NCBI GenBank assembly: GCA_046483085.1
Contig: JAWODX010000614.1
Coordinates: 1-30,793 of the forward strand
DNA length: 30,793 nucleotides
Origin: Planctomycetota bacterium
Lineage (GTDB): Bacteria > Planctomycetota > PUPC01
Reading direction: 5' to 3'
Shown one piece after another: positions 11,042 through 25,864 of this stretch (positions are counted from its first letter, which is position 1; each line of letters starts with the position of its first letter). The notes beneath the pieces are model-generated. The model saw only the letters and a program-made list of their open reading frames with translations. It was not told where the DNA came from and did not search any database. The translations under genes were made by a program, and so were the position numbers.

Positions 11042-11051
11042 GGTGGGCCCA

Positions 11052-11060
11052 ATCATACCA
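11052..11060 (-). promoter_or_regulatory. Extended -10 element for the histidine kinase
   Basis: Minus strand TG-G-TATGAT ending 10 nt before ATG 11041; no SD visible. Confidence 0.4.
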
Positions 11061-11119
11061 TGTGGTCCGGCGGGGCGCGCAAAGAAAATCGGTTCGGGCG
11101 GCGCGCGGTCGGGGCCGAG

Positions 11120-11141
11120 AATTGTGAAAAATTTCGCAATT
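11120..11141. promoter_or_regulatory. Palindromic operator, Rex-box/CRP-like
   Basis: AATTGTGAAAAATTTCGCAATT; core TTGTGAA-N4-TTCGCAA is one mismatch from the Rex consensus TTGTGAA-N4-TTCACAA. Confidence 0.65.
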
Positions 11142-11145
11142 CCCC

Positions 11146-11174
11146 TTGACGCACCCCGGCCCCGTCCGTATAGT
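11146..11174 (+). promoter_or_regulatory. sigma70 promoter of the hydrogenase operon
   Basis: TTGACG (11146-11151), 17-bp spacer, TATAGT (11169-11174). Confidence 0.8.
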
Positions 11175-11349
11175 ACGCCCAATCAACAAGCTGGATCGGC
11201 AGGAGTCGCGGGCGGGCGCGAGCGGAACGACCGATGCCGACCCGCTCCTGCCGGAGACAATCGGGTTCCGTACGACGCGGTAAGAGGGGCAGCGGAGCAA
11301 GTCGCGCCCCTCGGTTCGTTGTGCCTGTTCATCTATGGGAGGCGGGCAC

Positions 11350-12393
11350 GTGACCACGTACTGCCTGGACCCGCAGCAGCTGGCCGACGCTCTGGCCGAG
11401 AAAGAGGGGATCGTCACATTCGCGCCCGTCCCCACCGAGGGGATGAGCTGGCTGGGGATCGGCGTGGCGGAGCCGGACCCGTCGGCGCTCCGCGAACCGC
11501 GCAGCGCCCAGAGCCCCAAGGGCGCCGTCTTCCCCGCCTCGGAATCCGTCGGCCGCTACGGCCCGAAGGCCGGGACCGCCACCGACACGCTCCCCAAGTC
11601 CATCGTCCTCGTCGGCGTGCGCGCCTGCGAACTCCGCGCCATCCGCTACCTCGACCGCGTGCTGCTGGAGGGCGATTTCGAGGACCCGCCTTACCGCCGG
11701 CGCCGCGAGGCGACGACCCTCGTCGCCTGCGACTGCACCGGGCTGGCCGAGACCTGCGCCTGCACCCTCGTCGGAGGGCAGCCGTATCCCAACGAGGGCT
11801 ACGACGTCAACCTCACCCCGCTCGACGACCGGTTCCTCGTCGAGGTCGCCACCCCGAAGGGCGAGGCCTGGCTCGAGAGCGTCGGGCTCACCGATCTGGC
11901 CGAGGCCGGCGAAGACGAGCTGGCCCGGCGGGACGAGCAGCGGGCCGAAGTCGCCCGCCGCGTCGAGGAGCAGAACGCTGAGTTCGAGGTCCGCGCGTCG
12001 GACGACACGCCGGCGCCCCTGCCGGACGACGCCGCCGAGAGCTGGAACCGGTTCGCCGCCGACTGTGTCGAGTGCGGCGCCTGCACGCACATCTGCCCCA
12101 CCTGCCACTGCTTCTACCTCTACGACCAGGCGCTGGGGCCGGAGGAATTCGAGCGGCTGAAGACCTGGGACAGTTGCCTGTGGAGCACGTACCACCGGAT
12201 GGCGGGCGGCGCGGGCATGAAGCTCAGCCCGCGCCCGCGGCTGGCCAGCCGGCTGGCCAACCGCGTGCTGCACAAGTTCGTCTATTCGCCCCAGCAATAC
12301 GAGCTCCTGGGCTGCGTGGGCTGCGGCCGGTGTGTCGACGCCTGCCCCGGGGCCATTGACATTCGCGAGGTGGTAAGGGAACTGGCCGAATGA
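11350..12393 (+). CDS. AsrA/HydB (sulfhydrogenase beta)-like 4Fe-4S protein
   Basis: GTG start after GGAGG. 'GVRACELRAI', 'CVECGACTHICPTCHCF', 'WDSC', 'CVGCGRCVDACP'. Confidence 0.88.
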   Translation: MTTYCLDPQQLADALAEKEGIVTFAPVPTEGMSWLGIGVAEPDPSALREPRSAQSPKGAVFPASESVGRYGPKAGTATDTLPKSIVLVGVRACELRAIRYLDRVLLEGDFEDPPYRRRREATTLVACDCTGLAETCACTLVGGQPYPNEGYDVNLTPLDDRFLVEVATPKGEAWLESVGLTDLAEAGEDELARRDEQRAEVARRVEEQNAEFEVRASDDTPAPLPDDAAESWNRFAADCVECGACTHICPTCHCFYLYDQALGPEEFERLKTWDSCLWSTYHRMAGGAGMKLSPRPRLASRLANRVLHKFVYSPQQYELLGCVGCGRCVDACPGAIDIREVVRELAE

Positions 12394-13208
12394 CTGCGGA
12401 AGAGTCGTACCTGCCGACGCCGGCGGAGCTGGTCGAGGTGATCGACGAGACGCCGACGATCCGGACGCTGATCGTCGAGCCCGAGGAGCCGCTCGAATTC
12501 AAGGCCGGCCAGTTCGTCCAACTGACCGTCCCCGGCCGCGGCGAGGCGCCGTTCACCCCGTCCAGCTCCCCCAGCCAGCCCGACCGTATCGCCGTCACCG
12601 TCCTGCGCACCGGGAAGATCACCGACGAGCTGCACGAGGCGAGCGTCGGCGAGACGCTGGGCATCCGGGGGCCGTTTGGCAAGGGGTACCCGCTGGAGAA
12701 GCTGCCGGGGAAGGACGTGCTGATCGTGGGCGGCGGGGTCGGCCTGGCGCCGCTCCGCGCCCTCATCTTCGCCCTGCTCGAAGACCTGAGCGAGATCCCC
12801 CGCGTCAGCATCAAGTACGGCGCCCGCTGCATGGAGGAGCTGCTCTTCAACGACCAGTACGACGGGTGGGCGGAGCACCCGAAGGTCGACTTCACCTGCA
12901 CGATCGACCGGCCGCAGGAGGGCTGGACCGGGCGGACCGGGGTCGTCACCACCCTGCTCAAGGGGGTCGACGTCCACATCGGCAACTGCCTGTCGTTCGT
13001 GTGCGGGCCGAGCATCATGCTCAAGTTCACCACGATGGCCCTGGAAGAGGAGGGCTTTGCGCCGGAGCAGATCTACCTGTCGATGAACCGGCGGATGTCT
13101 TGCGGAAAGGGACTTTGCGGCCGCTGCAACATCGGGCCGTATTACCTGTGTAAAGACGGACCGGACATCAACTACGCGCTGATCAAGGGCTACCCCAACG
13201 TGTTCTAG
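12390..13208 (+). CDS. AsrB/HydG (sulfhydrogenase gamma, PyrK-like) FAD/NAD(P)-binding 2Fe-2S subunit
   Basis: 'FKAGQFVQL', 'GIRGPFGKGY', 'VGGGVGLAPL', 'CGPSIM', 'MSCGKGLCGRC...CKDGP'; ATGA overlap with the upstream gene. Confidence 0.92.
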   Translation: MTAEESYLPTPAELVEVIDETPTIRTLIVEPEEPLEFKAGQFVQLTVPGRGEAPFTPSSSPSQPDRIAVTVLRTGKITDELHEASVGETLGIRGPFGKGYPLEKLPGKDVLIVGGGVGLAPLRALIFALLEDLSEIPRVSIKYGARCMEELLFNDQYDGWAEHPKVDFTCTIDRPQEGWTGRTGVVTTLLKGVDVHIGNCLSFVCGPSIMLKFTTMALEEEGFAPEQIYLSMNRRMSCGKGLCGRCNIGPYYLCKDGPDINYALIKGYPNVF

Positions 13209-13280: not shown

Positions 13281-14900
13281 GTGCCTGGAGCCGAAGAAAG
13301 CCGTGACGTCCGCAGTCGATGCGTCCTCTGCCCCGCCGGCTGCGAGCTCGGGCTCGCCCCGAGCGGGCCGGACCGGTGGCGGACCGCGTACCCCCTGACC
13401 GACGACGCCGGGCTCTGTGCCCGCGGCTCCGTCGTCGGCGAGCTGCTCGGCCATCGCCGCCGCATCCTCGACCCCGCCGTCCACGAGGACGGATCGCGCC
13501 GCCGCGTCGGCCCCGACGACGCCCTGCGAGCGGTCCTCGACGCCGCCGGCGAGAAGACCCTGACCGTGCTGCTCGACGGCAACCTCCCGTGCGAGCAACT
13601 GGCCGAGGCCGTCGCCCGGCTCGACGCCTGGCCCGCCGGGCGCCTCTGCCTGGTCGTCGAACCCGTCGACCGCGAGCTCCTGCTCGGCACCGAGGAGAGC
13701 GGCGCCGACTACCTGCGGAACGACGGGCTGGCCGACTGCGACGGGTTCCTCCTCGTCGGGGACGTGTTCGCCGCGAACCCGCTGTGTGCGCGGCCCGTGC
13801 TCGACCGGCACCGGGCCGAGCCGAGGACGCCGATCGCCGCGCTGGACCCGGCCGGCGGGGCGGTCGTGAAATTCGCCTCGCACCGGGTCGACGTCGCCCC
13901 GGGCGGCGAGCTGGCCGCGCTCCGGGCGCTGGCGGCGGCCGCCGGGCTGAATGTCGACGCGCCGGACGTCCCCTCGGCCGCCGCGGCCGGGGCGGCCCTC
14001 GCCGACTGCGAGCGGCTGGGCGTCCTGCTCGCCGCCGAGTGCGCGCGGACCGACAACTGGCGCGCCATCGGCCGGCTGGCCGGCGACCTGGCGAAGGCCC
14101 GCGGCGGCGGCGTCGCCGTCCAGACGAACGGCGCGAACGCGCTGGCCGCCGTGCGCGTCGAGGCGGCGGAAGGGACGATCCCGCTGGCCGACGCGCTGGC
14201 CGACGAGAGCGACGTCAAGGTCGCCGTGGGCTGCGACGTCGTCGGGATGCTGGGGCGGGACGACGTTGCCGTCGCCGCCGCGGCCGCCGCCCTGCCGAAC
14301 CGGACGACGCAGGCGGCGGGGATTGTGCTCCCGCTCGCACTCCCCGGCGAGTACGGCGGCACGTATCTGCTCGACGGGGCGCGGCCGGCGGAGGTCGGGC
14401 CGCTCATCGACCCGCCGGCGGGGATCGAGACCGCCGCCGCGCTCGTGGCGGCACTGGCCCGCGCCGCGGGAGCGGCCGAGCCGGCGCCCCGGACGCAGGA
14501 CATCGTGCCCGGCCGCGTGGCCGGCGGGGACGCGCCGGCCGAGACGCCCGCCGCCGAGCACGCCTCGCTCGTCCTCGTCCTGGCGCGCCGGGCGGCGGAC
14601 GGCGGGTGCGGCGCGCTGACGGGCCACGCGAGCTGGCGGACGTCGGTCGATCCGCTGCCCGAGCTGGCGATGGCGCCCGACGACGCCGAGCAGGCCGGCC
14701 TGTCGAACGCGGCGGAGGTGACCGTCGAGACCGACCGCGGGCAGCTCCGGGCGCGGGTGCGCCTGGCGCCCGAGGTGCGGCCCGGGGTGTGTGTGCTGCC
14801 CGAGGGGCTGCCGGCCGCCCGGGCGCTCGTCTCGTCGGAACTCGATCCGGACCACCATCGCGTCGTGGCGCCACCGCGACCTGTCACAGTGAGCGAATAG
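13281..14900 (+). CDS. Divergent molybdopterin-oxidoreductase (FdhF/NuoG-like) homologue lacking the Mo-ligand motif
   Basis: N-terminal 4Fe-4S motif 'CVLCPAGC...LCARG'; 'LADCDGFLLVG...NP'; 'LPLALPGEYGGTY'; C-terminal molybdopterin-dinucleotide-like domain 'MAPDDAEQAGLSNAAEVTVETDRGQLRARVRLAPEVRPGVCVLP'. Confidence 0.75.
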   Translation: MPGAEESRDVRSRCVLCPAGCELGLAPSGPDRWRTAYPLTDDAGLCARGSVVGELLGHRRRILDPAVHEDGSRRRVGPDDALRAVLDAAGEKTLTVLLDGNLPCEQLAEAVARLDAWPAGRLCLVVEPVDRELLLGTEESGADYLRNDGLADCDGFLLVGDVFAANPLCARPVLDRHRAEPRTPIAALDPAGGAVVKFASHRVDVAPGGELAALRALAAAAGLNVDAPDVPSAAAAGAALADCERLGVLLAAECARTDNWRAIGRLAGDLAKARGGGVAVQTNGANALAAVRVEAAEGTIPLADALADESDVKVAVGCDVVGMLGRDDVAVAAAAAALPNRTTQAAGIVLPLALPGEYGGTYLLDGARPAEVGPLIDPPAGIETAAALVAALARAAGAAEPAPRTQDIVPGRVAGGDAPAETPAAEHASLVLVLARRAADGGCGALTGHASWRTSVDPLPELAMAPDDAEQAGLSNAAEVTVETDRGQLRARVRLAPEVRPGVCVLPEGLPAARALVSSELDPDHHRVVAPPRPVTVSE

Positions 14901-14901
14901 G

Positions 14902-15447
14902 ATGCCGACCCAGGAGCAGGAGACGATCGAGAAACGCGTGTTCGTGGACATGGACCGCTGCATCGAGTGCGGGTCGTGTGCGGCGGCGTGTTACTACAGC
15001 CACGCGGACATGCCCGCGGTGCAGCAGGCGCGGGCCGGCTGGGCGCTGCTCCCGGTGATCTGCCGGCAGTGCAAGTCGGCCCCGTGCGTCGACGTCTGCC
15101 CGGCGGAGGCGATGGTCCGGGACGACCAGGGGGTCGTGCGCCGGCGGCTGTTCCGCTGCATCGGCTGCGGGTCGTGCGCCCGGGCGTGTCCGTTCGGGGT
15201 GATCACGACGACGCTGGGGGGGACGCCGGTGGCGTGGAAGAGCCCGGACCGGCTGACCGGGCACCAAGTGGCGAAGTGTGACCTGTGCGCGGACCGCCTG
15301 TCGGAGCATCCGGACGCGGTCCCCCGGTGTGTGGCGGCGTGCCCGGCGGGGGCGCTCGTGTTTGTCGACGCCCGCGCGGCGCCGGCGGAAGGGATCAAGG
15401 TGGTGGGCGGCCGGACCGCCGCCGAGGACTTCTACAAACGCAGGTGA
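14902..15447 (+). CDS. HycB/HyfA/CooF-like 4x[4Fe-4S] electron-transfer protein
   Basis: 'CIECGSCAAAC', 'CRQCKSAPCVDVCP', 'CIGCGSCARACP', 'KCDLC...PRCVAACP'. Confidence 0.9.
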   Translation: MPTQEQETIEKRVFVDMDRCIECGSCAAACYYSHADMPAVQQARAGWALLPVICRQCKSAPCVDVCPAEAMVRDDQGVVRRRLFRCIGCGSCARACPFGVITTTLGGTPVAWKSPDRLTGHQVAKCDLCADRLSEHPDAVPRCVAACPAGALVFVDARAAPAEGIKVVGGRTAAEDFYKRR

Positions 15448-15451
15448 GCCA

Positions 15452-16402
15452 ATGGACGTGCCCTGGGCGTTGATTGCGTTTCTGGCCGCCGGCGCCGGGA
15501 CCCTCGTGCTCGGGCTCCTGCTCCGGTGGCTGGACCGGAAAGTGACGGCGCGGGTCCAGTGGCGGAAGGGCCCGCCGATCTACCAGACGTTCGCCGACGT
15601 GATCAAGCTGCTGGGCAAGGAGAACCTCATGCCGGCGAACGCGCGGGGGACGGGCTTCCTGCTCGCCCCGGTGCTCGCCCTGGCGGCGACGGCGGTGGCG
15701 GCGACGCTCCTGTGGACCGCGCTGCTCAGCCCGGGCACCACGTTCCTCGGCGACCTGATCGTGGTGATCTACTTCCTGGCCGTGCCCGCCATCATGACCA
15801 TCGTGGGCGGCGGGGCGAGCGGGAACCCGCACGCCTCGGTCGGCGCCAGCCGCGAGATCAAGCTGCTGATGAGCTATGAGCTGCCGCTGTTCATCGTCAT
15901 CCTGGTGGCGGTGGCTCACAGCGGCTGGACGTTCCAGCTCGGCGGGCTGCTCGCCGCCCAGCAGGCGGGCGCGCCGGTCGTCTTCCGCCTGTCCGGCGTG
16001 CTGGCCCTGGTCGTGGCGATCGTGTGCATGCAGGCGAAGCTGGGGCAGGTCCCGTTCGACCTGGCCGAGGCGGAGTGCGAGATCATGTCCGGGGTGTACG
16101 TCGAGTACTCCGGCCCGTCGCTCGCGTTCTGGATGATGACGCGGGCGATGCTGCTCGCCGTGATGCCGCTGTTGCTGATCATCGTGTTCTGGGGCGGGCT
16201 GACCCCGACGGTCCTCGGTGTGCTGGCGTTCGTGGGGAAGTACGTCCTGCTGGTGGCGCTGGTCACGTTGATCCGGAACACGAATCCGCGGCTGCGGATC
16301 GACCAGACGGTGCGGTTCTTCTGGTTCGTGCTCACCCCGCTCGCCGTGGTCACCATCCTGCTGGCGCTGATCGGGCAGGGGAAGGAGCTGCCGTGGCTGT
16401 GA
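15452..16402 (+). CDS. NuoH/HycD/MbhM-like membrane subunit
   Basis: 'DRKVTARVQWRKGPP..Q.FADVIKLLGKE', 'GASREIKLLMSYE', 'PFDLAEAECEIMSGVYVEYSG', 'PRLRIDQ'. Start at ATG 15452. Confidence 0.92.
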   Translation: MDVPWALIAFLAAGAGTLVLGLLLRWLDRKVTARVQWRKGPPIYQTFADVIKLLGKENLMPANARGTGFLLAPVLALAATAVAATLLWTALLSPGTTFLGDLIVVIYFLAVPAIMTIVGGGASGNPHASVGASREIKLLMSYELPLFIVILVAVAHSGWTFQLGGLLAAQQAGAPVVFRLSGVLALVVAIVCMQAKLGQVPFDLAEAECEIMSGVYVEYSGPSLAFWMMTRAMLLAVMPLLLIIVFWGGLTPTVLGVLAFVGKYVLLVALVTLIRNTNPRLRIDQTVRFFWFVLTPLAVVTILLALIGQGKELPWL

Positions 16403-16854
16403 AGACCTGGTGCCGGGAGCTGTGGAAGCGGGCGTTCGCCAAGTCGCTCTGGGTGTATCACGTGAACACCGGTGCGTGCAACAACTGCGACATCGAGGTG
16501 CTCGAGCTGCTCACGCCGCGCTACGACGTCGAGCGGTTCGGGATGGTGCTCGTCGGCTCGCCCCGGCACGCCGACGTGCTCGCCGTCACCGGGTCCTGCA
16601 CCCGGCAGGCGATGCCCCGGCTGCAGGAGGTCTACATGCAGACGGCGAAGCCCTGCGCCGTGCTGGCCATCGGGTCGTGCGCCCTGCACCAGGGCATCTT
16701 CGCCGAGGGATACCACATGGGCGCGACGGTCGACGAGACGATCAAAGCGGTCGACCCGAATGCGATCATCATGTACGTGCCCGGCTGCCCGCCGAAGCCG
16801 GAGGCGATGATCTCGGCCGCCGCCCAGGCGATGGAACTGATCAAGACGTTGTAG
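16393..16854 (+). CDS. [NiFe]-hydrogenase small subunit (HycG/MbhJ/NuoB-like)
   Basis: 'TGACNNCDIEV', 'YDVERFG', 'SPRHADVLAVTG', 'GSCA', 'PGCPPKPEA'. GTG start at 16393 (SD AAGGAG) or 16399. Confidence 0.92.
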   Translation: MAVKTWCRELWKRAFAKSLWVYHVNTGACNNCDIEVLELLTPRYDVERFGMVLVGSPRHADVLAVTGSCTRQAMPRLQEVYMQTAKPCAVLAIGSCALHQGIFAEGYHMGATVDETIKAVDPNAIIMYVPGCPPKPEAMISAAAQAMELIKTL

Positions 16855-16878
16855 AGGGAGGACGGAGGACATCCGACG

Positions 16879-18627
16879 ATGACCATCACGACGACAGAGA
16901 CAGAGGTCCCCCTGCAGGGCTTTGTCGGGGAGGTGCTGGAGCGGCTCGGCGACGCCGTGGTCGAGGTCGAGACCTGTGACGAGCGGCGGGGGTTCGCCCG
17001 GATCGACCCGGCGCGGACCGCCGAGGTCGCCGAGACGATGCTCGCGATGGAGGGCGCCCGGCTGGCCACGGCCAGCGGCGTCGACGTGCGCGACGGGATC
17101 GACGTGCTCTACCACTGGGCGTTCGAGCCGCAGGGCGTCGTGGTCACCCTCAAGGTGCTCGCCGAGCGGCCGGACCTGGAGGTCGAATCGGCCGCCAACG
17201 CCGTCCCGGCCGCTAACTGGATCGAGCGCGAGATGCACGACCTGCTCGGCGCGAACTTCCGGAACCATCCCGACATGCGGCGGCTCATCCTCGACGACTC
17301 GTGGCCGGAGGGGGTGTACCCGCTGCGGAAGGACTTCGACCAGGTGGCCGACCGGCCGCCGCTCCCGCCCCGGCAGACGGAGCCCGACGCGGACCCGCCG
17401 CTCCCCCGCGACCCCGGCCCCGGCGTCAAGGGGCAGGTCAAGCACCGCGACCTGAAGGTCGTCAACATCGGCCCCTTCCACCCGCTCCAGGAAGAGGCCG
17501 AGTTCTTCCAGCTCTACGTGGACGGCGAGACGGTGGTCGACGTCGACATGCGGACCAGCTACAACCACCGCGGGATCGAGAAGATCGACGAGTCGAAGAC
17601 GTTCGACCAGGTCCCGTTCGTCGTCGAGCGGGTCTGCGGCATCTGTTCGGCCAGCCATCCGCTGGCCTACGTCCAGGCGGTCGAGGAGATCGCCGAGGTC
17701 GACGTGCCCGAGCGGGCGCTCTACCTGCGGACCATCGTGAACGAGCTGGAGCGGCTCCACTCGCACATGCTGTGGGTCGGCCTGGCCGGCCACTTCCTCG
17801 GGTACAACACCGTGTTCATGTGGGCGTGGAAGTACCGCGAGCCGGTGATGGACATCCTGGAGATCGCGACCGGCAGCCGGGTCAACTACGCCAACTGCAA
17901 GGTGGGCGGCGTCCGGCGCGACATCACCGACGAACAGCTCCGCCAGATCGACCAGGTCTGCACCGAACTCGTCGAGCCGCTCGAGATGCTGACCCACGCG
18001 GTGCTCGACGACCCGGTGCTCCACGCGCGCCTGAAAGGCGTGGGGATTCTCAGCCCGCAGGCCGCGAAGGAGTTCGGCGCGCTCGGGCCGACGGCCCGCG
18101 GCAGCGGCGTGCCCATCGACGTGCGCCGCGACGACCCGTACGCCGCGTACGACCGCGTCGACTGGGACGTCTGTACCCAGCCGAAGGGGGACGTGTTCGG
18201 CAAGGCGGTCGTCCGCCTGCTCGAATGCCTGGAGGCGGTGAAGATCATCAAGCAGTGCGTGCAGGACCTGCCCGGCGGCGAGATCGACGCGAAGGTCGAG
18301 GCCATCCCGCCCGGCGAGGGCGTGGGGCACGTCGAGGCGCCGCGCGGCGAGACCTTCCACTACGTGCGCAGCGACGGCTCGAACCGCCCGGTCCGCCACA
18401 AGGTCCGGGCGCCCAGCTTCAACAACGTCCCCACGTTCAAGGCCTCGTGCATTGGGCAGCGGATCCCCGACGTGGCCATCACCCTGGCGAGCATCGACCC
18501 GTGCTACTCGTGCACGGAGCGGATGTGCGCCGCGGTGGACGCCGACACGGGGGTCCGGCTGTACACGTTCCAGGACCTGGTTCGCCTGTCGCAGCAGAAG
18601 ACAAGAGAGCTGCGCGAGAAAGGGTAG
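16879..18627 (+). CDS. Group 4 [NiFe]-hydrogenase large subunit fused to a NuoC/MbhK-like domain (HycE-type architecture)
   Basis: NuoC part 'NWIEREMHDLLG...HPDMRRLIL...YPLRKDF'; 'NHRGIEK'; L1 'ERVCGICSASH' (17626-17658); 'VEAPRGETFHY'; L2 'DPCYSCTER' (18496-18522); 34-aa C-terminal extension. Confidence 0.95.
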   Translation: MTITTTETEVPLQGFVGEVLERLGDAVVEVETCDERRGFARIDPARTAEVAETMLAMEGARLATASGVDVRDGIDVLYHWAFEPQGVVVTLKVLAERPDLEVESAANAVPAANWIEREMHDLLGANFRNHPDMRRLILDDSWPEGVYPLRKDFDQVADRPPLPPRQTEPDADPPLPRDPGPGVKGQVKHRDLKVVNIGPFHPLQEEAEFFQLYVDGETVVDVDMRTSYNHRGIEKIDESKTFDQVPFVVERVCGICSASHPLAYVQAVEEIAEVDVPERALYLRTIVNELERLHSHMLWVGLAGHFLGYNTVFMWAWKYREPVMDILEIATGSRVNYANCKVGGVRRDITDEQLRQIDQVCTELVEPLEMLTHAVLDDPVLHARLKGVGILSPQAAKEFGALGPTARGSGVPIDVRRDDPYAAYDRVDWDVCTQPKGDVFGKAVVRLLECLEAVKIIKQCVQDLPGGEIDAKVEAIPPGEGVGHVEAPRGETFHYVRSDGSNRPVRHKVRAPSFNNVPTFKASCIGQRIPDVAITLASIDPCYSCTERMCAAVDADTGVRLYTFQDLVRLSQQKTRELREKG

Positions 18628-18634
18628 AGGTGGT

Positions 18635-20569
18635 ATGAACGGGATCGTCGAGGTGGTCACCCATCCGCTGGTCTGGCCGATCGCGGCGGCCGCGCTGGCC
18701 GGGCTGCTGGCGACCGTCCTCTCCCGGTGGTCGGCCTTCGTCTGCAAGGTCCTGGCCCTCGCGGCCAGCATCTGCGTGCTGGTGGGCGGGATCACGCTGG
18801 CGGGAGCCGGGGCACTCTCCGAGCGCTGGGTCTGGGTGGAGGGCCTGGCCGAGAACGTCTCGCTCGTCGCCCATCTGGCCGTCTCGCCGCTGGGGCTGCT
18901 GGTGATGATCGCGTCGGGCGGGTTCGGGCTCCTGATCACGCTGTACAGTTTCCGGGACATGGCGGGGGCCGATTTCGAGGGCCGGTTCTACGCGTACCTG
19001 ACGTGGACGCTGGCGGGCGCGTGCGTGGTCGCCCTGGCGGGCAACCTGCTCGTCCTGCTCGTCGGCTGGGAAGTGGTCACCCTCATGCTCTTCCTGATGG
19101 TCAACCAGGGCCGGGAGGGCGCCGAGGCGGGGGCGATGAAGGCGTACGGCGTGCTCGGCTTCGCCGACGCCTGCCTGCTGCTCGCGGTGGCGCTCCTGGT
19201 CTCGCTGAAGGGGGGCACGGCGAACCTCGTCCTGCGGTCCGAGCCGATGACCGTCTCGGCGATGGGGGCGACCGGGTACGTGATCTACGCGCTCCTGCTC
19301 GTCGCCGCGCTGGCCAAGGCGGGCGCCGTTCCGCTCCACACGTGGATCCCGGACATCGCCGAGAAGGCGCCGACGCCGGTGATGGCGCTCGTGCCGGCGG
19401 CCCTCGACAAGCTGCTGGGCATCTACCTGCTGGCGCTCGTCGTGCTGCGGATGTTCCGGCCGGACTGGACGATGCAGGTGGTGCTGATGGCGATCGGGGC
19501 GGTGACGATCCTCAGCGCCGTGCTGATGGCGATGATCCAGCACAACCTCAAGCGGCTGCTCTCGTTTCACGCGGTCAGCCAGGTCGGGTACATGGTGTTG
19601 GGGATCGGGACCGGGACGGCCGTGGGCGCCGTCGGCGGCCTGTTCCACATGCTCAACCACGCGATCTACAAGAGCAACCTGTTCCTGATGGGCGGGACGG
19701 TCGGCGACGCGGCGGGCAGCGACGAGATCGAGGAGATGGGCGGCCTGGCCCGGGCCCTGCCCGTCACGTTCGTGTGCGGTGCGATCAGCGCGGCGGCGAT
19801 CTCCGGCGTGCCGCCGCTGAACGGCTTCGCCAGCAAGTGGCTGGTCTACCAGGGTGCGCTGAAGGTCTCGGAGCAGCACGCGTCGCTCGCTCTGGCCGTG
19901 CTCGTGGTGGCGGTGTTCGGCAGCGCGTTGACCCTGGCGAGTTTCGTGAAGGTGATCTACTCGGCGTTCCTTTCCCCGCCGCCGCGCGAGAAGGAGCCGA
20001 TGCTGAAGACTGTTCGGGAGAGTGTGTGGCGGGCCGGACCGATGGTGGTGCTGGCCGCAGCCTGCGTGGTGTTCGGGCTGCGGCCGGGCCTCGTCACGAA
20101 CCGGATCCTCCCGTCGGCTGTCCCGGCCGCGACGGCGGCCATCTCGACGACGGAAGGGGCGCTGCGGACCGGCGACGTGGGCTACTGGAGCCCGACGCAG
20201 GCGACGGGCCTGATCCTGCTCGGGCTGGCGCTCGGCCTGCTCCTGCTCGGCCTGGTCAGCATGGGCAAGCGGGTGCGGGTGGTCCGGCCGTTCCTCGCCG
20301 GCGAGGTGCCCGCGCCCGACGACGACCGGTTCCGGTTCCCCGGCACCGGGTTCTATCTGACCGTTGCCCGGCTGCCGATCCTCGGGCCCTGGCTCGCCCA
20401 GGCCGAGGGCGGCGCCGTCGACCTGTACCACTGGTCGGGGCGGCACGGCAACACGTTCGTCCAGTTCCTCCGCCGACTTCACACCGGCCTCGTCAGCTTG
20501 TACGTCGCCTGGTGCCTGACGGGCCTGACCGTGATCCTGATTTATCTGCTGATGACCGCGAGGGGATGA
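18635..20569 (+). CDS. Antiporter-like membrane subunit (HyfB/NuoL/MrpA-type)
   Basis: 'LLVGWEVVT', 'KAGAVPLHTWIP', 'LKRLLSFHAVSQVGY', 'HMLNHAIYKS', 'GVPPLNGFASKW'; ATG 18635 after GAGGTG. Confidence 0.9.
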   Translation: MNGIVEVVTHPLVWPIAAAALAGLLATVLSRWSAFVCKVLALAASICVLVGGITLAGAGALSERWVWVEGLAENVSLVAHLAVSPLGLLVMIASGGFGLLITLYSFRDMAGADFEGRFYAYLTWTLAGACVVALAGNLLVLLVGWEVVTLMLFLMVNQGREGAEAGAMKAYGVLGFADACLLLAVALLVSLKGGTANLVLRSEPMTVSAMGATGYVIYALLLVAALAKAGAVPLHTWIPDIAEKAPTPVMALVPAALDKLLGIYLLALVVLRMFRPDWTMQVVLMAIGAVTILSAVLMAMIQHNLKRLLSFHAVSQVGYMVLGIGTGTAVGAVGGLFHMLNHAIYKSNLFLMGGTVGDAAGSDEIEEMGGLARALPVTFVCGAISAAAISGVPPLNGFASKWLVYQGALKVSEQHASLALAVLVVAVFGSALTLASFVKVIYSAFLSPPPREKEPMLKTVRESVWRAGPMVVLAAACVVFGLRPGLVTNRILPSAVPAATAAISTTEGALRTGDVGYWSPTQATGLILLGLALGLLLLGLVSMGKRVRVVRPFLAGEVPAPDDDRFRFPGTGFYLTVARLPILGPWLAQAEGGAVDLYHWSGRHGNTFVQFLRRLHTGLVSLYVAWCLTGLTVILIYLLMTARG

Positions 20570-20573
20570 TCCC

Positions 20574-21182
20574 ATGGGGATTGAGTGGCTGATTGTGGCG
20601 CTGATCGCGTTCATGCTCATGGCGGGCCTGATCGCCGTGGAGACACGCGACCTGCTCAGCTCGGTGATCGCCGTGGGCGCCGCCGGCTTCGCGCTCAGCA
20701 TCATCGACCTGCTGGTCGGGGCGCCCGACCTCGCGATCACCCAGGTCGTGGTCGAGGTCATCGCCCTGGTCCTGCTCATCCGCATGGTGGTGACGCGCGA
20801 GGACACGTCGTCGATCCGTTCGCGCGACGTACTCCGCACCGGGGCCATGCTCCTGGCCGCGGGGCTGATCCTCGTCGGCGCATACTTCGCCGTCCGGCCG
20901 GGCGACGAGGGCACGTTGCCGCCGTTCGGCGACCCGGTCCTGGCTCGGGATGCCGTGCGCGGGGACGACCAGGGCGTGAGCGAGGGATACCTGAGAAAGA
21001 CGGAGGAGCAGACGGGGGCGGCGAACGCGGTGACCGCGGTGCTGCTCGACTACCGGGCCTACGACACGCTGGGCGAGGCGACGGTGATCTTCGTCTCGAT
21101 CCTCGGTGTGTACGCCGTGCTCCGCCGGGTGGGCCGCAAGCGCGGTGAGGCGGGCGAAGAGAGCTGCGAGGGAGAGGCATGA
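20574..21182 (+). CDS. DUF4040 plus MnhB-N fusion (MbhD+MbhE-like; corresponds to the MrpA C-terminal part)
   Basis: 'GAPDLAITQVVVE' and 'NAVTAVLLDYRAYDTLGEATVIF'. Confidence 0.88.
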   Translation: MGIEWLIVALIAFMLMAGLIAVETRDLLSSVIAVGAAGFALSIIDLLVGAPDLAITQVVVEVIALVLLIRMVVTREDTSSIRSRDVLRTGAMLLAAGLILVGAYFAVRPGDEGTLPPFGDPVLARDAVRGDDQGVSEGYLRKTEEQTGAANAVTAVLLDYRAYDTLGEATVIFVSILGVYAVLRRVGRKRGEAGEESCEGEA

Positions 21183-21631
21183 TGAGCAGCAAGAGCGGCA
21201 TGACCTTGATCGTGAAGAACACGGCGCGGCTGGTGGCCGGGTTCATTGCCGTGTTCGGGGTGTACCTGGCGGCGACGGGGCACCTGTCGCCCGGCGGCGG
21301 GTTCCCCGGCGGGGTGATCCTGGCGGCGGCGGCCGTGTTGGTCGTGCTGGCATTCGGGAAGGACTTCGCCGGGCGCCTGCTGCGCGAGCCGCAGTGCCAC
21401 GTGTGGGACGCGGCGGGGGCGGGCGCGTTCCTGCTCGTCGCCCTGTGCGGCTATTTCGCCGGTGGGTTCTTCGCCAACTTCCTGCCTGCCGGCCAGGTCC
21501 ACACGCTGCAGTCGGCGGGGAGCATCCCGCTCTCCAACCTGGCGATCCTGGTCAAGGTGGGCGCGGGGCTCGCCGGCGCCTTCCTCGCCTTGTCCGCGTT
21601 TCGACTCGCTCTACCGAAGGGAGACGAGTGA
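21179..21631 (+). CDS. mnhB: Na+/H+ antiporter subunit B (MbhF-like)
   Basis: 'GHLSPGGGFPGGVILA'; ATGA overlap. Confidence 0.88.
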   Translation: MMSSKSGMTLIVKNTARLVAGFIAVFGVYLAATGHLSPGGGFPGGVILAAAAVLVVLAFGKDFAGRLLREPQCHVWDAAGAGAFLLVALCGYFAGGFFANFLPAGQVHTLQSAGSIPLSNLAILVKVGAGLAGAFLALSAFRLALPKGDE

Positions 21632-21632
21632 G

Positions 21633-21989
21633 ATGGGTGTGTCCGTCTACGTGCTGAGCATCGCCGTCCTGCTGGTGGGCATCTACGGCGTGGTGGCGAA
21701 AAAGAACGTGGTCAAGATCATCGTCGGGGTGCTGCTGCTCGACTACGCGGTCAACCTGTTCCTGGTGCTCGTCGGGTATCGGAGCGGCGGCACGGCGCCG
21801 ATCCTGGGCGAGGGCGAGACGGGCGCCGAGTTGGCGGCCCGGGCCGTCGATCCGCTCCCCCAGGCCATGGTTCTGACGAGCATCGTGATCGGGCTGGGCC
21901 TGACGGCCCTCATGGTGGCGATCGCCATCCGCCTGTACGAGAAATACGGGACGTTCGACGCCGATGAGATGCGGAAGCTGAGGGGCTAG
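21633..21989 (+). CDS. mnhC: Na+/H+ antiporter subunit C (MbhG/NuoK-like)
   Basis: 'KNVVKIIVG...AVNLFL', 'DPLPQAMVLTSIVIG'. Confidence 0.9.
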   Translation: MGVSVYVLSIAVLLVGIYGVVAKKNVVKIIVGVLLLDYAVNLFLVLVGYRSGGTAPILGEGETGAELAARAVDPLPQAMVLTSIVIGLGLTALMVAIAIRLYEKYGTFDADEMRKLRG

Positions 21990-21992
21990 ACT

Positions 21993-23495
21993 ATGGAATC
22001 GCTGGTGCCGCTGTTTGTGATCGTGCCCCTGGGCGTGGCGTTCCTCGTGGTCATCCTGGCCCACGTGCGGCCGCTCCGCCGGGTGGTCGGCCCCCTGTCC
22101 TTCGCGGCCATCCTGGCCAACGCGGCGCTCGCGATCTCCGTCCTGGGCGTCGAGATGGCCCCCCTGTACGTGGGCAAATGGAACCCCGATTCGGTGTTGG
22201 GCATCGCCATGGTCTGCGACGGGCTGGCGAAGCTCATGCTGGTGACGATCAACTTCGTGGCCGCGGCGGCGCTGATCTACGCGGGCGCCTACATGCGGCG
22301 GTTCACCAAGGTCTGGCTATTCTACGCCCTGTTCCTGCTGATGACCGGTGCGATGAACGCGGTGGTGCTGGCGGGCGACCTGTTCAACATGTTCGTGTTC
22401 CTGGAGATCGCGGCCATCTCGTCGTACGCCCTGGTCGCGTTCGGCTGCGAGTCGGAAGAGCTGGAGGCGGCGTTCAAGTACCTGATCATGGGGACGGTCG
22501 GCTCGGCCTGCATCCTGCTTGGAATCGCGGTTCTCTATTCGCTGACCGGGCAGTTGAATATGGCGCAGGTCGGCGGGCTCTTGGCGCGGGGCGCGGGCCC
22601 GGCCGCCTTGTTTGCGGCGGCGGCGCTGTTGGCCGGGCTGGCGCTGAAGGCCGCGATGGTCCCCTTCCACGCCTGGCTGCCCGACGCCCATCCCTCCGCG
22701 CCGGCGCCCATCTCGGCGATGCTGTCCGGCGTGTTGATCAAGGCGATCGGCGTATATGCGCTCGCGCGGATCGTGTTCAATGTGCTGGGGCCGACGGCGG
22801 AGTACAGCATGATCCTCGTCGTGCTTGGGGCCGCGTCGATGGTGATCGGCGTCTTCCTGGCGGTCGGCCAGTGGGACCTGAAGCGCCTGCTCGCCTATCA
22901 CAGCATCTCGCAGATGGGCTACGTCGTCCTCGCACTGGGTGTGGCGGCGGGGCTGGTGGCCGAGGGCGGGAGCCGCAGCGTCGCCGCGCTCTGCCTGCTG
23001 GGCGGGCTGTTCCACATGTTCAATCACGCGGCGTTCAAGAGCTTGCTCTTCCTGTCGTCCGGGTCCATCGAGCAGCAGACGGGGACGCGGATGCTGAAGC
23101 AGATGGGCGGGCTGAAGACGCGGATGCCGGTCACCAGCTTCTGCTGCCGGATCGGCGCATTGAGCATCGCGGGCGTCCCGCCGCTGAACGGCTTTTTCTC
23201 GAAGCTCATCATCATCGTCGCTCTGGTGCTGGCCGGGCGGCCGCTGCTGGCCGGGCTGGCCGTGCTGGTCGCGCTGATGACGCTCGTCAGCTTCACCAAG
23301 GTGCAGCGGTACGTGCTGGAGGGGACGCCGAAGCCGGCGGCGGCCCTGGCCCGCGAGGCCCCGGTGATGATGTGCGTGGCACTCGTCTTTCTCGCCCTGG
23401 TCTGCATCGGCGGCGGACTCGCCCTGTTCCCGCTCCGCGAGCACCTGTTCGGCCCGGCCGGCGAGGCGCTCCTGCGAGGGATCGGCGGACCGTGA
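21993..23495 (+). CDS. mnhD: Na+/H+ antiporter subunit D (MbhH-like)
   Basis: 'GDLFNMFVFLEI', 'EAAFKYL', 'LKAAMVPFHAWLPDAHPSAPAPISAMLSG', 'DLKRLLAYHSISQMGY', 'GVPPLNGFFSK'. Confidence 0.92.
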   Translation: MESLVPLFVIVPLGVAFLVVILAHVRPLRRVVGPLSFAAILANAALAISVLGVEMAPLYVGKWNPDSVLGIAMVCDGLAKLMLVTINFVAAAALIYAGAYMRRFTKVWLFYALFLLMTGAMNAVVLAGDLFNMFVFLEIAAISSYALVAFGCESEELEAAFKYLIMGTVGSACILLGIAVLYSLTGQLNMAQVGGLLARGAGPAALFAAAALLAGLALKAAMVPFHAWLPDAHPSAPAPISAMLSGVLIKAIGVYALARIVFNVLGPTAEYSMILVVLGAASMVIGVFLAVGQWDLKRLLAYHSISQMGYVVLALGVAAGLVAEGGSRSVAALCLLGGLFHMFNHAAFKSLLFLSSGSIEQQTGTRMLKQMGGLKTRMPVTSFCCRIGALSIAGVPPLNGFFSKLIIIVALVLAGRPLLAGLAVLVALMTLVSFTKVQRYVLEGTPKPAAALAREAPVMMCVALVFLALVCIGGGLALFPLREHLFGPAGEALLRGIGGP

Positions 23496-23508
23496 TCGGA
23501 GTCCTGGT

Positions 23509-23994
23509 ATGAAGTGGCTGATGTGCCTGTTGGCCGTGTTCGCCCTGTGGGTCCTCCTGTTCTGGTCGGTGGACGCGTGGGTGCTGGGCAGCGGCGCCTT
23601 CTTCGCCCTGCTCGTCGCCACCTTCCTCGGCGAGATCTACCCCGACCGCATGGACCGGGTGCTCGACCCCCGGCGCGTCTTCTTCTTCCTCGTCTACCTC
23701 CCCTACTTCTTCTACTGGTGCCTCAAGGCGAACCTCGACGTGGCCCTGCGCGTCATCCACCCCGATGTCCCCATCCGCCCGGGCATCGTCAAGGTCAAGA
23801 CCTCGCTCCGGACCGACATGGCCAAGACGTTCCTCGCCAACAGCATCACTCTCACGCCCGGCACACTCACCGTGGACATCGACGGGGACGACGTGTACGT
23901 GCACTGGATCAACATCGACACCGACGATGTGGAGCAGCGGACGAGCGAGATCTGCGGCCGGTTCGAGCCGCTGCTGCGGAGGATTTTCGAATGA
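23509..23994 (+). CDS. mnhE: Na+/H+ antiporter subunit E (MbhA-like)
   Basis: 'ANLDVALRV..P..PIRPGIV', 'LANSITLTPGTLTVD', 'YVHWI'. Confidence 0.92.
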   Translation: MKWLMCLLAVFALWVLLFWSVDAWVLGSGAFFALLVATFLGEIYPDRMDRVLDPRRVFFFLVYLPYFFYWCLKANLDVALRVIHPDVPIRPGIVKVKTSLRTDMAKTFLANSITLTPGTLTVDIDGDDVYVHWINIDTDDVEQRTSEICGRFEPLLRRIFE

Positions 23995-24257
23995 CCCTGT
24001 TCGTACAGATCGCATTCGCCGTGCTCCTGCTCGGCTCGTTCCTCTGCCTCTACCGCATCGCCCGCGGGCCCACCCCGCCCGACCGGACCGTCGCCATCGA
24101 CATCCTCGGCACCCTCGTCGTCGGCTTCTGTTGCCTCATGGCGCTGGGCACCGACCTCGAATACTACATGAACATCGCCATCGCCTGGGCTCTCATCAGC
24201 TTCACCGGCACGCTCGCTCTGGCCAAGTACCTGGAAGGCAGATCTTACGATGATTGA
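23991..24257 (+). CDS. mnhF: Na+/H+ antiporter subunit F (MbhB-like)
   Basis: 'RIARGPTPPDRTVAID', 'SFTGTLALAKYLE'; ATGA overlap. Confidence 0.9.
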   Translation: MTLFVQIAFAVLLLGSFLCLYRIARGPTPPDRTVAIDILGTLVVGFCCLMALGTDLEYYMNIAIAWALISFTGTLALAKYLEGRSYDD

Positions 24258-24645
24258 GACGATCGCCTGCTGGATTATCGGCGTCGGCCTCGCGTTCGAC
24301 CTGTTCGGCTGCATCGGCCTGGTCCGGCTCCCCGACGTGTACAACCGCGCCCAGGCCGCCACGAAATGCGTCACGCTCGGCACCTGCATGATCCTGGTCG
24401 GCGTGGCCCTCGCCGCCGTCGGGTCGGGCAACTGGCCGATGGCCGTCAAGGCGCTCATCTGCGCCTCGTTCATCCTCCTCACCAGCCCCGTCGGCGCCCA
24501 CGCCATCTGCCGCGGCGCCTATCTCTCCGGCGTCCCCCTGTGGGAGGGGAGCGTCGAGGACGCGTTCGAGCCGAGAGCCCGCACCATCCGAACCGAAGAA
24601 ACCCAGGAAGGACCCGCCCCCGATGCGGAAACCGAAACTGCGTGA
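24250..24645 (+). CDS. mnhG: Na+/H+ antiporter subunit G (MbhC-like)
   Basis: 'GLVRLPDVYNRAQAATKCVTLG', 'TSPVGAHAICRG'. Confidence 0.9.
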   Translation: MIETIACWIIGVGLAFDLFGCIGLVRLPDVYNRAQAATKCVTLGTCMILVGVALAAVGSGNWPMAVKALICASFILLTSPVGAHAICRGAYLSGVPLWEGSVEDAFEPRARTIRTEETQEGPAPDAETETA

Positions 24646-25240
24646 GCTCAAAGAGGCCGTCCGGTCCCTCCTCTCCCCGGCCTACACCACCCGGTTCCCC
24701 GCCGAACCCCACGTCCCGCCCGAGGGCTTCCGCGGCAAACCCGAGTTCCAGGAGGACGACTGCATCGGCTGCGCCGCCTGCGCCGAGCTCTGCCCCTCCG
24801 TTGCCATCAGCTACGTCGACGACGCCGGGGCCGATCCGCCGACCCGCCGGTTCGAGCTCCGGCTCGACAAGTGCATCTTCTGCGGCCAGTGCGAGCTCAA
24901 CTGCACCACCGAAAAGGGCATCAAGCTCACCGGCCAGTACGACATGACCACCCTCGACCGCTCCGAGTGCCGCGAGCGGATCGAACACGAGCTCGTCCTC
25001 TGCGAGGTCTGCGGCGCCATCGTCGGCACGCGCAAACACCTCCAGTGGGTCGCCGAAAAGCTCGGGGCGAAGGCGTACGCCAACCCCACCCTGATCGTCA
25101 CCGCCGACGGGACCATGCAGCTCGCCACGCCCGACGCCGGCCGGCCCGGCGAACCCGCACTCGCACGAAGCGACATGATGCGCGTCATGTGCCCCGCCTG
25201 CCGACGCACCACCATCGTCCGCGAGCTGTGGGGCGAGTAA
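24623..25240 (+). CDS. HycF/NuoI/MbhN-like 2x[4Fe-4S] subunit with an extra Cys-rich C-terminal domain
   Basis: 'YTTRFP', 'FRGKP', 'CIGCAACAELCP', 'CIFCGQCELNC', plus 'CEVCG...CPAC'. Confidence 0.92.
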   Translation: MRKPKLRELKEAVRSLLSPAYTTRFPAEPHVPPEGFRGKPEFQEDDCIGCAACAELCPSVAISYVDDAGADPPTRRFELRLDKCIFCGQCELNCTTEKGIKLTGQYDMTTLDRSECRERIEHELVLCEVCGAIVGTRKHLQWVAEKLGAKAYANPTLIVTADGTMQLATPDAGRPGEPALARSDMMRVMCPACRRTTIVRELWGE

Positions 25241-25257
25241 GGAGCTCGAACAAAACG

Positions 25258-25309
25258 GTGGGGCGGACATTCCTGTCTGCCGCGCAGCAGGCAAGAATGC
25301 CTGCTCCAC
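25258..25309. repeat. REP doublet copy 2 (opposite orientation), inside the operon
   Basis: GTGG-GGCGGACA-TTCC-TGTCTGCC-GCGC-AGCAGGCA-AGAA-TGCCTGCT-CCAC. Confidence 0.85.
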
Positions 25310-25336
25310 CAGAGTTCTGTTAGACGGCCTAAGCCC

Positions 25337-25864
25337 GTGACCTCCCCCGAACCCTCCTCCCCCGACCGGTCCGAGCCCGAGCGCCTGGCCGAATGGCTGG
25401 CCGAGGTGCTCCGGCCCTCGTCGGTGATCATCGGAATCGGGGACGAGCTTCGGGGCGACGACGGAGCGGGGGTCGCCGTCGCCCGCCGGCTGGCCGAGGC
25501 CGTCCCCTGGGCGGTCGTGGTCGGCGAAAACGCGCCCGAGAACTTCACCATGAAGATCGCCGCCCGCCAGCCGACCTCCGTCCTGCTGATCGACGCCCTC
25601 CACTTCGGCGGCCGCCCCGGCGGCGTCCGCGCCCTCGACCCGGCCCAGCTCGACGGCCGCGGCATCGGCACGCACGGACCCGGGCCCGACACCTTCCTCC
25701 GCGCCCTCCGCTCGCTCCACCCCTGCCGGCAGGTCGTGCTCGGCATCCAGCCGCTCGACACGAGCTTCGGCGAGGGCCTGACCGAGCCCGTCGCCGACGC
25801 TGTCGACGCCGTCGTCCGCGCATTCGAGCTCTGCGCCGAACGTCGTCGGCCCGGAGAGCGCTGA
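25337..25864 (+). CDS. hycI: Hydrogenase maturation endopeptidase (HycI family)
   Basis: 'IGIGDELRGDDGAG', 'GENAPENF', 'VLLIDA', 'GTHG', 'LGIQP...FGEGLTEPV'. Confidence 0.88.
   Translation: MTSPEPSSPDRSEPERLAEWLAEVLRPSSVIIGIGDELRGDDGAGVAVARRLAEAVPWAVVVGENAPENFTMKIAARQPTSVLLIDALHFGGRPGGVRALDPAQLDGRGIGTHGPGPDTFLRALRSLHPCRQVVLGIQPLDTSFGEGLTEPVADAVDAVVRAFELCAERRRPGER

Follow-up and report, generated by a model that had tools for sequence, protein, structure and literature searches.

The question raised by the locus analyzed here is whether a protein that resembles the alpha subunit of formate dehydrogenases (FDHs), and is encoded within an operon for a membrane-bound [NiFe]-hydrogenase, still oxidizes formate, and what role it might play otherwise. 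The protein, which together with its family is denoted FdhL hereafter, is the 539-amino-acid product of the gene at 13281..14900 (+) in a stretch of 30,793 nucleotides (the window), positions 1 to 30,793 of contig JAWODX010000614.1 of a Planctomycetota bacterium (assembly GCA_046483085.1). As indicated by the open reading frame (ORF), Pfam, sequence profiles and a structural model, FdhL is a degenerate member of the molybdenum/tungsten-bis-pyranopterin guanine dinucleotide (Mo/W-bisPGD) superfamily that includes FDHs and the periplasmic nitrate reductases (Nap). The original prediction, made from the sequence alone, held that catalysis had been lost in this protein, and the analysis agrees: the loop that carries the selenocysteine (Sec) and His of Escherichia coli FdhF is deleted, Arg333 is replaced, most of the contacts with bis-molybdopterin guanine dinucleotide (bis-MGD) are gone, the protein evolves fast, and its own genome lacks markers of molybdenum cofactor (Moco) biosynthesis. 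Judging from these sequence features, FdhL very probably lacks the Mo/W-bisPGD cofactor, and the in silico evidence supports the loss of formate oxidation along with the retention of the iron-sulfur (FeS) cluster and the fold.

The gene starts with GTG and contains no in-frame stop codons. The window has approximately 70% G+C, so that long ORFs crowd every frame; the translation and the third-position GC content of 0.94, a value typical of the genuine genes of the window, identify 13281..14900 (+) as the true gene. The overlapping ORFs in other frames encode Arg-rich sequences and are artefacts. Alanine accounts for 20.0% of the residues, and the earlier description of an Ala-rich, 539-residue protein without an in-frame TGA is accurate. 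A protein identical to FdhL is already present in the public collection. A word-indexed search returns 82 homologues that are 40-59% identical to FdhL. Almost all of them have 490-580 residues, and those few whose source is named come from Planctomycetes/Phycisphaerae metagenome bins. The exhaustive HMMER search against 1.84 billion representatives delineates a family of 222 clusters (50% clustering, E <= 0.001) with full-length members of 520-620 residues. Given that the full-length relatives are similarly short, the length of FdhL is ancestral to the family and not the result of truncation. Within the phylum, FdhL is found in 20 of the 401 sampled genomes. The C-terminal, molybdopterin-dinucleotide-like part that had been noticed in the sequence is indeed kept and corresponds to domain IV (Molydop_binding, PF01568; residues 431-525, 14571..14855 (+), E = 5.3e-13). 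In the Pfam search, neither PF00384 (Molybdopterin) nor PF04879 (Molybdop_Fe4S4) matches FdhL at E <= 0.01; PF00384 still recognizes some of the distant orthologues (E of 1e-10 to 1e-14), and the NCBIfam matches are to FDH alpha subunits only, all of them sub-threshold.

The fate of the metal ligand was examined in an alignment of 128 family members (51 close and 77 wider ones) with E. coli FdhF, NapA and NuoG (the K-12 record), and in an hhalign comparison of the family with a profile built from FdhF and from eleven canonical FDH alpha subunits that are encoded in the same planctomycete genomes. In the latter comparison (probability 100%, E = 4.4e-70, 528 columns), the FdhL family shows a 4-residue gap that exactly faces R138-V139-U140(Sec)-H141 of FdhF. 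E. coli FdhF reads CARVUHGPS at Sec140 whereas FdhL reads AGRLCLVVEP, with no His after the Cys, and thus the Cys/Sec-His dyad is missing, as originally proposed. What remains of the active site (residues 120-130; 13638..13670 (+)) is the strand GRLCLV, a two-residue loop and the helix start PVD, with R138-H141 of FdhF left unmatched; in the AlphaFold2 model, the strand spans residues 120-125 and, after two loop residues, the helix spans residues 128-140. For the ligand segment, local alignments yield conflicting results: phmmer equates C123 with C140 of NapA, the profile-to-PDB alignment places the site at E127, four residues later, and MAFFT matches V129 with U140. The hhalign version, with the loop deleted, was adopted because it is consistent with the AlphaFold2 secondary structure. 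None of the three competing alignments yields a conserved column of Cys, Sec or Ser near the ligand site; in the wider family, for example, the V129 column is occupied by E, A, T, S or G. The Cys of the RLCL motif (C123), for which the original prediction had left room as a Mo ligand, is embedded in the strand and is paired by hhalign with D134 of FdhF, not with Sec140. This column is dominated by Cys in the close homologues (C in 43 of 51, S in 4, A in 3, L in 1) and is not conserved in the 77 wider members (A in 22, S in 20, D and G in 7 each, T and L in 5 each, and C in 3).

The catalytic Arg333 of FdhF is replaced as well. In the segment GGGVAVQTNGANALAAV (14109..14156 (+)), which the alignments equate with GVNPVRGQNNVQGAC of FdhF, this position is occupied by Thr282, and Asn286 is invariant; across the 77 wider members, L, F, T, P or Y is found in place of the Arg. 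The canonical FDHs from the same genomes keep both the CARLC(U)H and the RGQ(N/S)NVQG motifs. According to the contact list in the UniProt annotation of E. coli NapA, checked by residue identity only and applied over an approximate alignment, FdhL retains 3-4 of the ~14 bis-MGD contacts common to FdhF and NapA, namely G160, D319 and R436, with His440 in most of the close homologues; the wider relatives retain about 2. The residue identities at every listed NapA position agreed with the sequence. Contacts that are lost or changed include M297, Q301 (to R), D429 (to A), D478, T579, N662 (to R) and K679. A comparably small set of contacts survives in E. coli NuoG, and the replacements of K44 by R and of N176 by D in FdhL are the same as in NuoG. 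Hence the combination that the original prediction had named as speaking against itself, an intact ligand in RLCL together with conserved bis-MGD residues, is not what the alignment reveals.

Three of the former contact positions, R48, R256 and R514, are now invariant or nearly invariant arginines, and N286, R292, D319 and E357 are family-specific invariant residues within cleft-forming motifs. Such conservation is what could be expected if the former cofactor cleft now accommodated a different anionic ligand, such as a nucleotide, with a regulatory or a new catalytic role. The arginines, however, may just occupy a vacant cleft, the putative ligand cannot be named, and NuoG, which has the same K-to-R change, binds none; re-use of the cleft is therefore regarded as highly improbable.

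The rate of evolution points in the same direction as the loss of the active site. Catalytic alpha subunits normally evolve slowly, so that the fast rate of FdhL is as predicted by relaxed active-site constraint. Across 13 distant loci, the identity to the proteins of the window is 26-33% for FdhL, compared to 37-44% for AsrA, 56-68% for AsrB, 39-53% for HycB, 47-57% for NuoH and 51-71% for the hydrogenase large subunit, making FdhL the least conserved among the compared subunits of the operon. In the seven genomes that encode both FdhL and a canonical FDH alpha subunit, the pairwise tree distances of FdhL are greater by a median factor of 3.8 (range 2.5-7.7).

The supply of the cofactor in the host genomes presents a more complicated picture. 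In the genome of the window (4.27 Mb, 651 contigs, 85% complete), there is no match to MoaC, the MoaA C-terminal domain, MoeA_N, MoaE, FdhD or any canonical PF00384 protein, and searches of the 10 genomes of the same taxonomic family (81-93% complete) detect neither MoaC nor MoeA_N. In two other FdhL-containing genomes (G046 and G209), neither the four Moco markers nor canonical Mo enzymes are found, and in a third one (G120) only MoeA_N is detected among the four markers. Matches to PF00994, present in 5 of the 5 tested genomes, are uninformative since Moco-less control genomes match as well. The absence of Moco markers is consistent with a cofactor-less FdhL but the argument is weakened by FDH cassettes. 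In G050, the respective cassette (C105:1-9000) encodes NuoE-like and NuoF-like proteins, FdhA with intact CARLCH and RGQNNVQG motifs, FdhD, a TupA/ModA-like binding protein and an ABC permease; in this genome, the MoaA C-terminal domain and MoaE, likewise, are not found, in addition to MoaC and MoeA_N. Furthermore, G162, a genome of the same class (8 Mb, 91% complete), encodes a Sec-type FDH alpha subunit with a TGA codon and none of the four markers, and its congener G387 has MoaC, which illustrates that a clustered Moco locus can drop from a bin as a block. In the marker-less genomes that encode FDHs, either the Moco pathway is systematically missed in the bins or the cofactor is obtained otherwise. 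Because marker-less genomes of the family and G162 carry canonical or Sec-containing FDHs, the absence of the markers is not decisive.

In contrast to the active site, the fold appears to be intact. The AlphaFold2 model based on the family alignment has a predicted local distance difference test score of 93.2 and a predicted template modeling score of 0.93. In Foldseek and VIA-align comparisons, the whole chain superposes on Mo-bisPGD enzymes with Z of 26-28 over 514-523 of the 539 residues: Bacillus subtilis ForC (Z 27.8, 522 residues), Methylorubrum extorquens FDH (Z 27.1), Desulfovibrio desulfuricans NapA (Z 26.8) and FdhH (Z 26.1-26.5), including FdhF within the formate hydrogenlyase structure 7z0t. 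The scores with the cofactor-less NuoG/Nqo3 are 25.9 for Thermus thermophilus Nqo3 and 23.9 for E. coli NuoG. FdhL is about 160 residues shorter than FdhF, owing to a dozen small deletions distributed over domains II-IV and the C-terminus. The model thus depicts a predicted fold that is compacted yet complete, with all four domains, domain IV included.

Several of these observations fit the possibility that FdhL still is an enzyme of the Mo/W-bisPGD type in which a non-canonical residue (Asp130, or Cys123 in the close subfamily) serves as the ligand and the electrons of some substrate enter or leave via AsrAB or the hydrogenase, and they accordingly count against the loss of the cofactor. The four-domain fold with domain IV is complete. 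The close subfamily keeps Cys123 in 43, Arg436 in 44 and His440 in 32 of the 51 members, and phmmer aligns RLC-L without a gap onto RLC140-M, the Mo-ligand motif of D. desulfuricans NapA. All 51 close members and 72 of the 77 wider ones have Asp or Glu at D130, a few residues from the ligand site; by analogy with NarG, in which an Asp ligates the metal, D130 could in principle do the same. MoaC is present in 14 of the 19 other genomes with FdhL, that is, most of the holders make Moco, and canonical FdhA adjoins FdhD in G050, G143 (C187) and G101 (C127), members of the same taxonomic family in which no Moco marker was found. The approximate nature of the contact comparison belongs on this side, too, as does the 2019 description of an orthologue as a molybdopterin oxidoreductase (PMC6349859). 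On the opposite side are the deletion of the ligand loop, the loss or replacement of the D429, D478, T579, N662, K679, M297 and Q301 contacts, the lack of conservation of C123 in the wider family, evolution 3.8 times faster than that of true FDHs, and the presence of FdhL in genomes with neither a Moco marker nor any other Mo enzyme. Taken together, these features make an active Mo/W enzyme quite improbable and favor a cofactor-less FdhL.

FdhL keeps the FS0-type [4Fe-4S] motif C14-x2-C17-x3-C21-x24-C46 (13320..13427 (+)), followed by the invariant R48-G49 (K44-G45 in FdhF); the chain starts 13 residues ahead of this motif. The motif itself had been recognized in the original prediction, which gave the last spacing as x26; counted between C21 and C46, it is x24. 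No full-length close homologue, and none of the 13 genomic orthologues, deviates at any of the four cysteines. The motif is present in 71 of the 89 wider representatives of at least 500 residues, a count that is partly circular as evidence of universality because representatives were chosen for having the motif; among the remaining 18, most are truncated gene calls that begin inside the motif, and CxxCxxxD is found in at least two. In the distant relatives P0180 and P0215, CxxCxxxD replaces CxxCxxxC, and in P0197, the sequence is CxxCC with an Asp three residues further on; by their sequences, these proteins possibly contain an Asp-ligated or otherwise altered cluster. A second FeS cluster in place of the cofactor was considered and rejected: in the wider family, the other cysteines of FdhL (C104, C153, C169, C243, C254, C318 and C443) lack conservation.

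The retention of FS0 bears directly on the role of the protein. It appears reasonably probable, somewhat beyond an even chance, that the cofactor-less FdhL is an FeS adaptor or scaffold that links the AsrAB module to the membrane hydrogenase. Alternatively, the cofactor-less FdhL could be merely a structural clamp, with AsrA wiring straight into the HycB-like ferredoxin and FS0 being off-pathway like cluster N7 of NuoG. Indeed, N7, the homologous cluster, is off-pathway in complex I, FS0 without the pterin has no obvious point of electron entry, and the structural similarity to NuoG is considerable (Z up to 23-26). Many NuoG lineages, however, have lost N7, which is dispensable, whereas the FS0 cysteines and the R-G pair are essentially invariant across a very divergent family. 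Moreover, in every known alpha/beta pair of the superfamily, FS0 is positioned opposite the first beta-subunit cluster. A purely structural role is thus unlikely, and the adaptor with an FS0 cluster that perhaps participates in electron transfer is preferred.

The origin of FdhL can be traced with less certainty. The profile of 51 family members matches, among solved structures, the F420-dependent FDH (9t1s_L, E = 1.8e-28) and Methanospirillum hungatei FdhA (E = 1.4e-19), followed by D. desulfuricans NapA (E = 1.5e-19), FdhH (E = 1e-12) and NuoG (E of 4e-6 to 8e-4), with 51-103 bits for FDHs against 23-29 bits for NuoG. In the maximum likelihood tree (60 rows, LG+C20 model with posterior mean site frequencies, quick search, unrooted), FdhL, NuoG and all canonical enzymes form separate clans, with supports of 95, 100 and 98, respectively, in the Shimodaira-Hasegawa-like approximate likelihood ratio test (SH-aLRT), and FdhL and NuoG attach to a common node. 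A clade of FdhL with FDH and Nap is not rejected by the approximately unbiased test (p = 0.074). The N-terminal architecture of NuoG ties it to the FdsA-type FDHs. Because NuoG, too, falls outside all the canonical enzymes in this tree, the position of FdhL beside NuoG looks like, and probably is, an artefact of unequal rates, with long-branch attraction being possible. The independence of FdhL from NuoG, which was part of the original prediction, accordingly rests on the architecture (no N-terminal [2Fe-2S]/[4Fe-4S] domain, a HycB-type neighbor, and AsrAB instead of NuoEF) and draws no support from the tree, where the two are adjacent and the alternative has p = 0.074. The same applies to the suggested formate hydrogenlyase ancestor: the single-cluster architecture, the HycB-like neighbor and the best matches to FDHs are in its favor, whereas the placement in the tree outside the canonical enzymes is not. 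Descent of FdhL from the FDH subunit of a formate hydrogenlyase is plausible on the basis of the sequence comparisons.

The operon that encompasses FdhL starts with AsrA, an FeS subunit similar to the beta subunit of sulfhydrogenase (Fer4_22; 11335..12393 (+)), and AsrB, similar to the sulfhydrogenase gamma subunit, with FAD/NAD(P)H and [2Fe-2S] domains (12390..13208 (+)), both assigned with Pfam and NCBIfam, as are the HycB-like protein, the NuoH-like protein and the large subunit described next. Downstream of FdhL is a four-cluster ferredoxin of the HycB/HydN/DmsB type (Fer4_11-type; 14902..15447 (+)), the classical beta partner of Mo-bisPGD alpha subunits, followed by a NuoH/HycD-like membrane subunit (15278..16402 (+)). 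The NuoB/MbhJ-like small subunit of the [NiFe]-hydrogenase (16399..16854 (+), 151 amino acids) contains the GACNNCD and GCPP motifs, its orthologues carry PF01058, and its GTG start overlaps the NuoH stop (GTGA). This gene is missing from the list of ORFs of at least 80 amino acids in the window; an off-frame ORF of 189 amino acids in its place (16410-16979) has no family match and was rejected. The large subunit is a fused NuoC-NuoD/HycE-like protein (16879..18627 (+)) with intact Ni-Fe motifs RVCGICSASH and DPCYSCTER. The Mrp/Mbh module, identified with Pfam (18452..25864 (+)), consists of NuoL-like, MbhD/E, MnhB, NuoN-like, MnhE, MnhF and MnhG components, the NuoL-like and NuoN-like proteins being two antiporter-like subunits; genes for a NuoI/HycF-like ferredoxin and the HycI protease come next. 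A second MnhE-like gene is located outside the operon (29483-29917 (+)).

The gene order AsrA-AsrB-FdhL-HycB-NuoH-(small)-large-NuoL-MbhDE-MnhB-NuoN-MnhE is conserved in 14 of 14 genome loci, as far as the contigs reach, and the same operon is found in 3 metagenome loci, which belong to two distant FdhL representatives. Genes for AsrA/AsrB-like proteins precede FdhL at every locus examined, and a HycB-like gene directly follows it wherever the locus extends past FdhL. In two of the loci from distant relatives in metagenomes, a gene for a Rex-type repressor (Put_DNA-bind_N and CoA_binding) is located directly upstream of the operon (L051:4255-4950 and L052:1602-2297), an arrangement that is consistent with control by the NADH/NAD+ ratio. 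The same two loci encode an additional 309-residue protein with a faint match to the PPC domain between AsrB and FdhL (L051:7045-7974 and L052:4392-5321). In the window, a PilS-like histidine kinase with six transmembrane segments (9590-11182 (-)) is divergent from the operon and may regulate it; G050 has an equivalent with 63% identity at the corresponding location, and near the operon at several other loci there are weaker kinase matches. The plus-strand ORF at 9665-11149 is spurious, the true gene there being that of the kinase.

From these components, a route for electrons can be outlined. FdhL, as an FDH-type alpha subunit that would have lost the cofactor and formate oxidation but kept the four-domain fold and FS0, would dock on the adjacent HycB-like ferredoxin; to our knowledge, all alpha subunits of the superfamily dock on a four-cluster ferredoxin. 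The ferredoxin, in turn, would feed the small subunit and then the Ni-Fe site of the Mrp-type membrane hydrogenase. The other side of FdhL would hold the AsrA/AsrB-like NAD(P)H:FeS module, the homologues of which are, according to NCBIfam, the NAD(P)H-oxidizing beta-gamma pair of the Pyrococcus sulfhydrogenase. The docking of AsrAB on FdhL is inferred solely from the strictly conserved gene order; a complex prediction for FdhL with the AsrA-like subunit, both submitted as alignments, scored 0.11 against a mark of 0.32 and is evidence neither way. The predicted path would lead from NAD(P)H through FAD, [2Fe-2S], the AsrA clusters, perhaps FS0, the HycB clusters and the small subunit to Ni-Fe, and the machine as a whole would link the NAD(P)H/NAD(P)+ couple with 2H+/H2 and with the movement of ions across the membrane. 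The transfer of electrons from NAD(P)H to H2 is uphill at standard potentials, so that the Mrp module would either draw on the ion gradient (membrane potential) to discharge NAD(P)H as H2 or, running in reverse, conserve the energy of H2-dependent NAD(P)+ reduction.

This arrangement is reminiscent of complex I. NuoG has the Mo-bisPGD fold without the cofactor and keeps N7, the equivalent of FS0, and NuoG/Nqo3 is a scaffold or wire that connects an NAD(P)H-flavin module with a membrane complex derived from a hydrogenase, a role that FdhL may share. The two proteins also have in common the K44-to-R and N176-to-D changes and similarly few MGD contacts, and superpose with Z of 23-26. NuoG differs in having an N-terminal domain with one [2Fe-2S] and two [4Fe-4S] clusters (Fer2_4, NADH-G_4Fe-4S_3 and Fer4_Nqo3), none of which is detected in FdhL with Pfam, in its NuoE/F partners in place of the AsrA/AsrB-like and HycB-like neighbors of FdhL, and in belonging to a separate, albeit adjacent, clan of the unrooted tree (SH-aLRT of 95 for FdhL and 100 for NuoG). 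The complete N-terminal architecture is seen in a canonical FdhA. It is conceivable, although we rate it slightly below an even chance, that the operon is a second, independent case of the assembly principle of complex I: an Mrp formate hydrogenlyase would have lost formate oxidation, and the dead FDH would have been kept as the platform and wire for a captured AsrAB-like diaphorase, giving rise to an ion-translocating NAD(P)H:H+ oxidoreductase.

Other known systems resemble that of FdhL in part. FdhF/HycB of E. coli formate hydrogenlyase and the Mrp-linked formate hydrogenlyases of the Fdh-Mfh-Mnh type combine a single-cluster alpha subunit with both a four-cluster ferredoxin and a [NiFe]-hydrogenase of group 4; FdhF, however, has Sec140-His141, Arg333 and the full set of MGD contacts, all missing in FdhL, and FdhL is always preceded by AsrAB-like genes. 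StnC/NfnC of the electron-bifurcating Stn/Nfn-ABC transhydrogenases (PDB 8oh5_C and 9bov_A), which, like NuoG, we take to be devoid of the cofactor, contain an FDH-like domain inside an FeS/flavin complex. The FdhL profile matches StnC/NfnC with E = 8.6e-14, the alignment with 8oh5_C covering the segment equivalent to that of Arg333 (Z 22.4); these proteins are multidomain fusions of ~1,170 amino acids in which only ~410 residues align. The closest precedent in terms of function loss is ElpA in the Methanothermobacter marburgensis Elp-Hdr complex (Nature 2025; PDB 8rvu/8rvy), a truncated FdhA in which molybdopterin is absent by electron cryo-microscopy and which, having lost FDH activity, is kept beside a flavin subunit in an electron-transfer complex (PMC12350162). 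The FdhL profile detects ElpA with E = 2.3e-10, and the FdhL model superposes on it with Z 24.5 over residues 10-395. ElpA, at ~340 amino acids, lacks MopB/domain IV and partners with F420H2/Hdr, in contrast to the 539-residue FdhL with its four domains, PF01568 included, and its AsrAB and hydrogenase neighbors. FdhL is thus a third architecture of a dead FDH adaptor, after the precedents of NuoG and ElpA.

The operon itself has been encountered before. The same gene set in the Saganbacteria genome RX5A was described as an 'enigmatic' group 4 hydrogenase, with the FdhL-like protein taken as molybdopterin-containing and the function left open, and related hydrogenases were reported in Zixibacteria and Omnitrophica (Matheus Carnevali et al. 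2019, PMC6349859); the correspondence with the FdhL operon is drawn from the described gene set and not from sequence. The literature search found no other paper that links asrA, asrB, Mbh and molybdopterin, and nothing on Phycisphaerae, Mrp hydrogenase and formate dehydrogenase together. In the source annotation, the relatives of FdhL are labeled either 'anaerobic selenocysteine-containing dehydrogenase' or 'NuoG'. Both labels are misleading since metabolic reconstructions would infer formate metabolism or complex I from them.

Altogether, the reading of FdhL as an adaptor provides a testable account of a widespread hydrogenase operon. The gain of the NADH module of complex I via a dead FDH, NuoG, has so far been inferred from one surviving lineage only; FdhL would be a second, differently built case in which a membrane hydrogenase is joined to an NAD(P)H-flavin module via a degenerate FDH. 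The family presents a graded series, with some members still recognized by the Pfam Molybdopterin model, and true FDHs are available in the same organisms for comparison. The operon also hints at a way in which fermenting anaerobes could connect their NAD(P)H pool with H2 and with the ion gradient.

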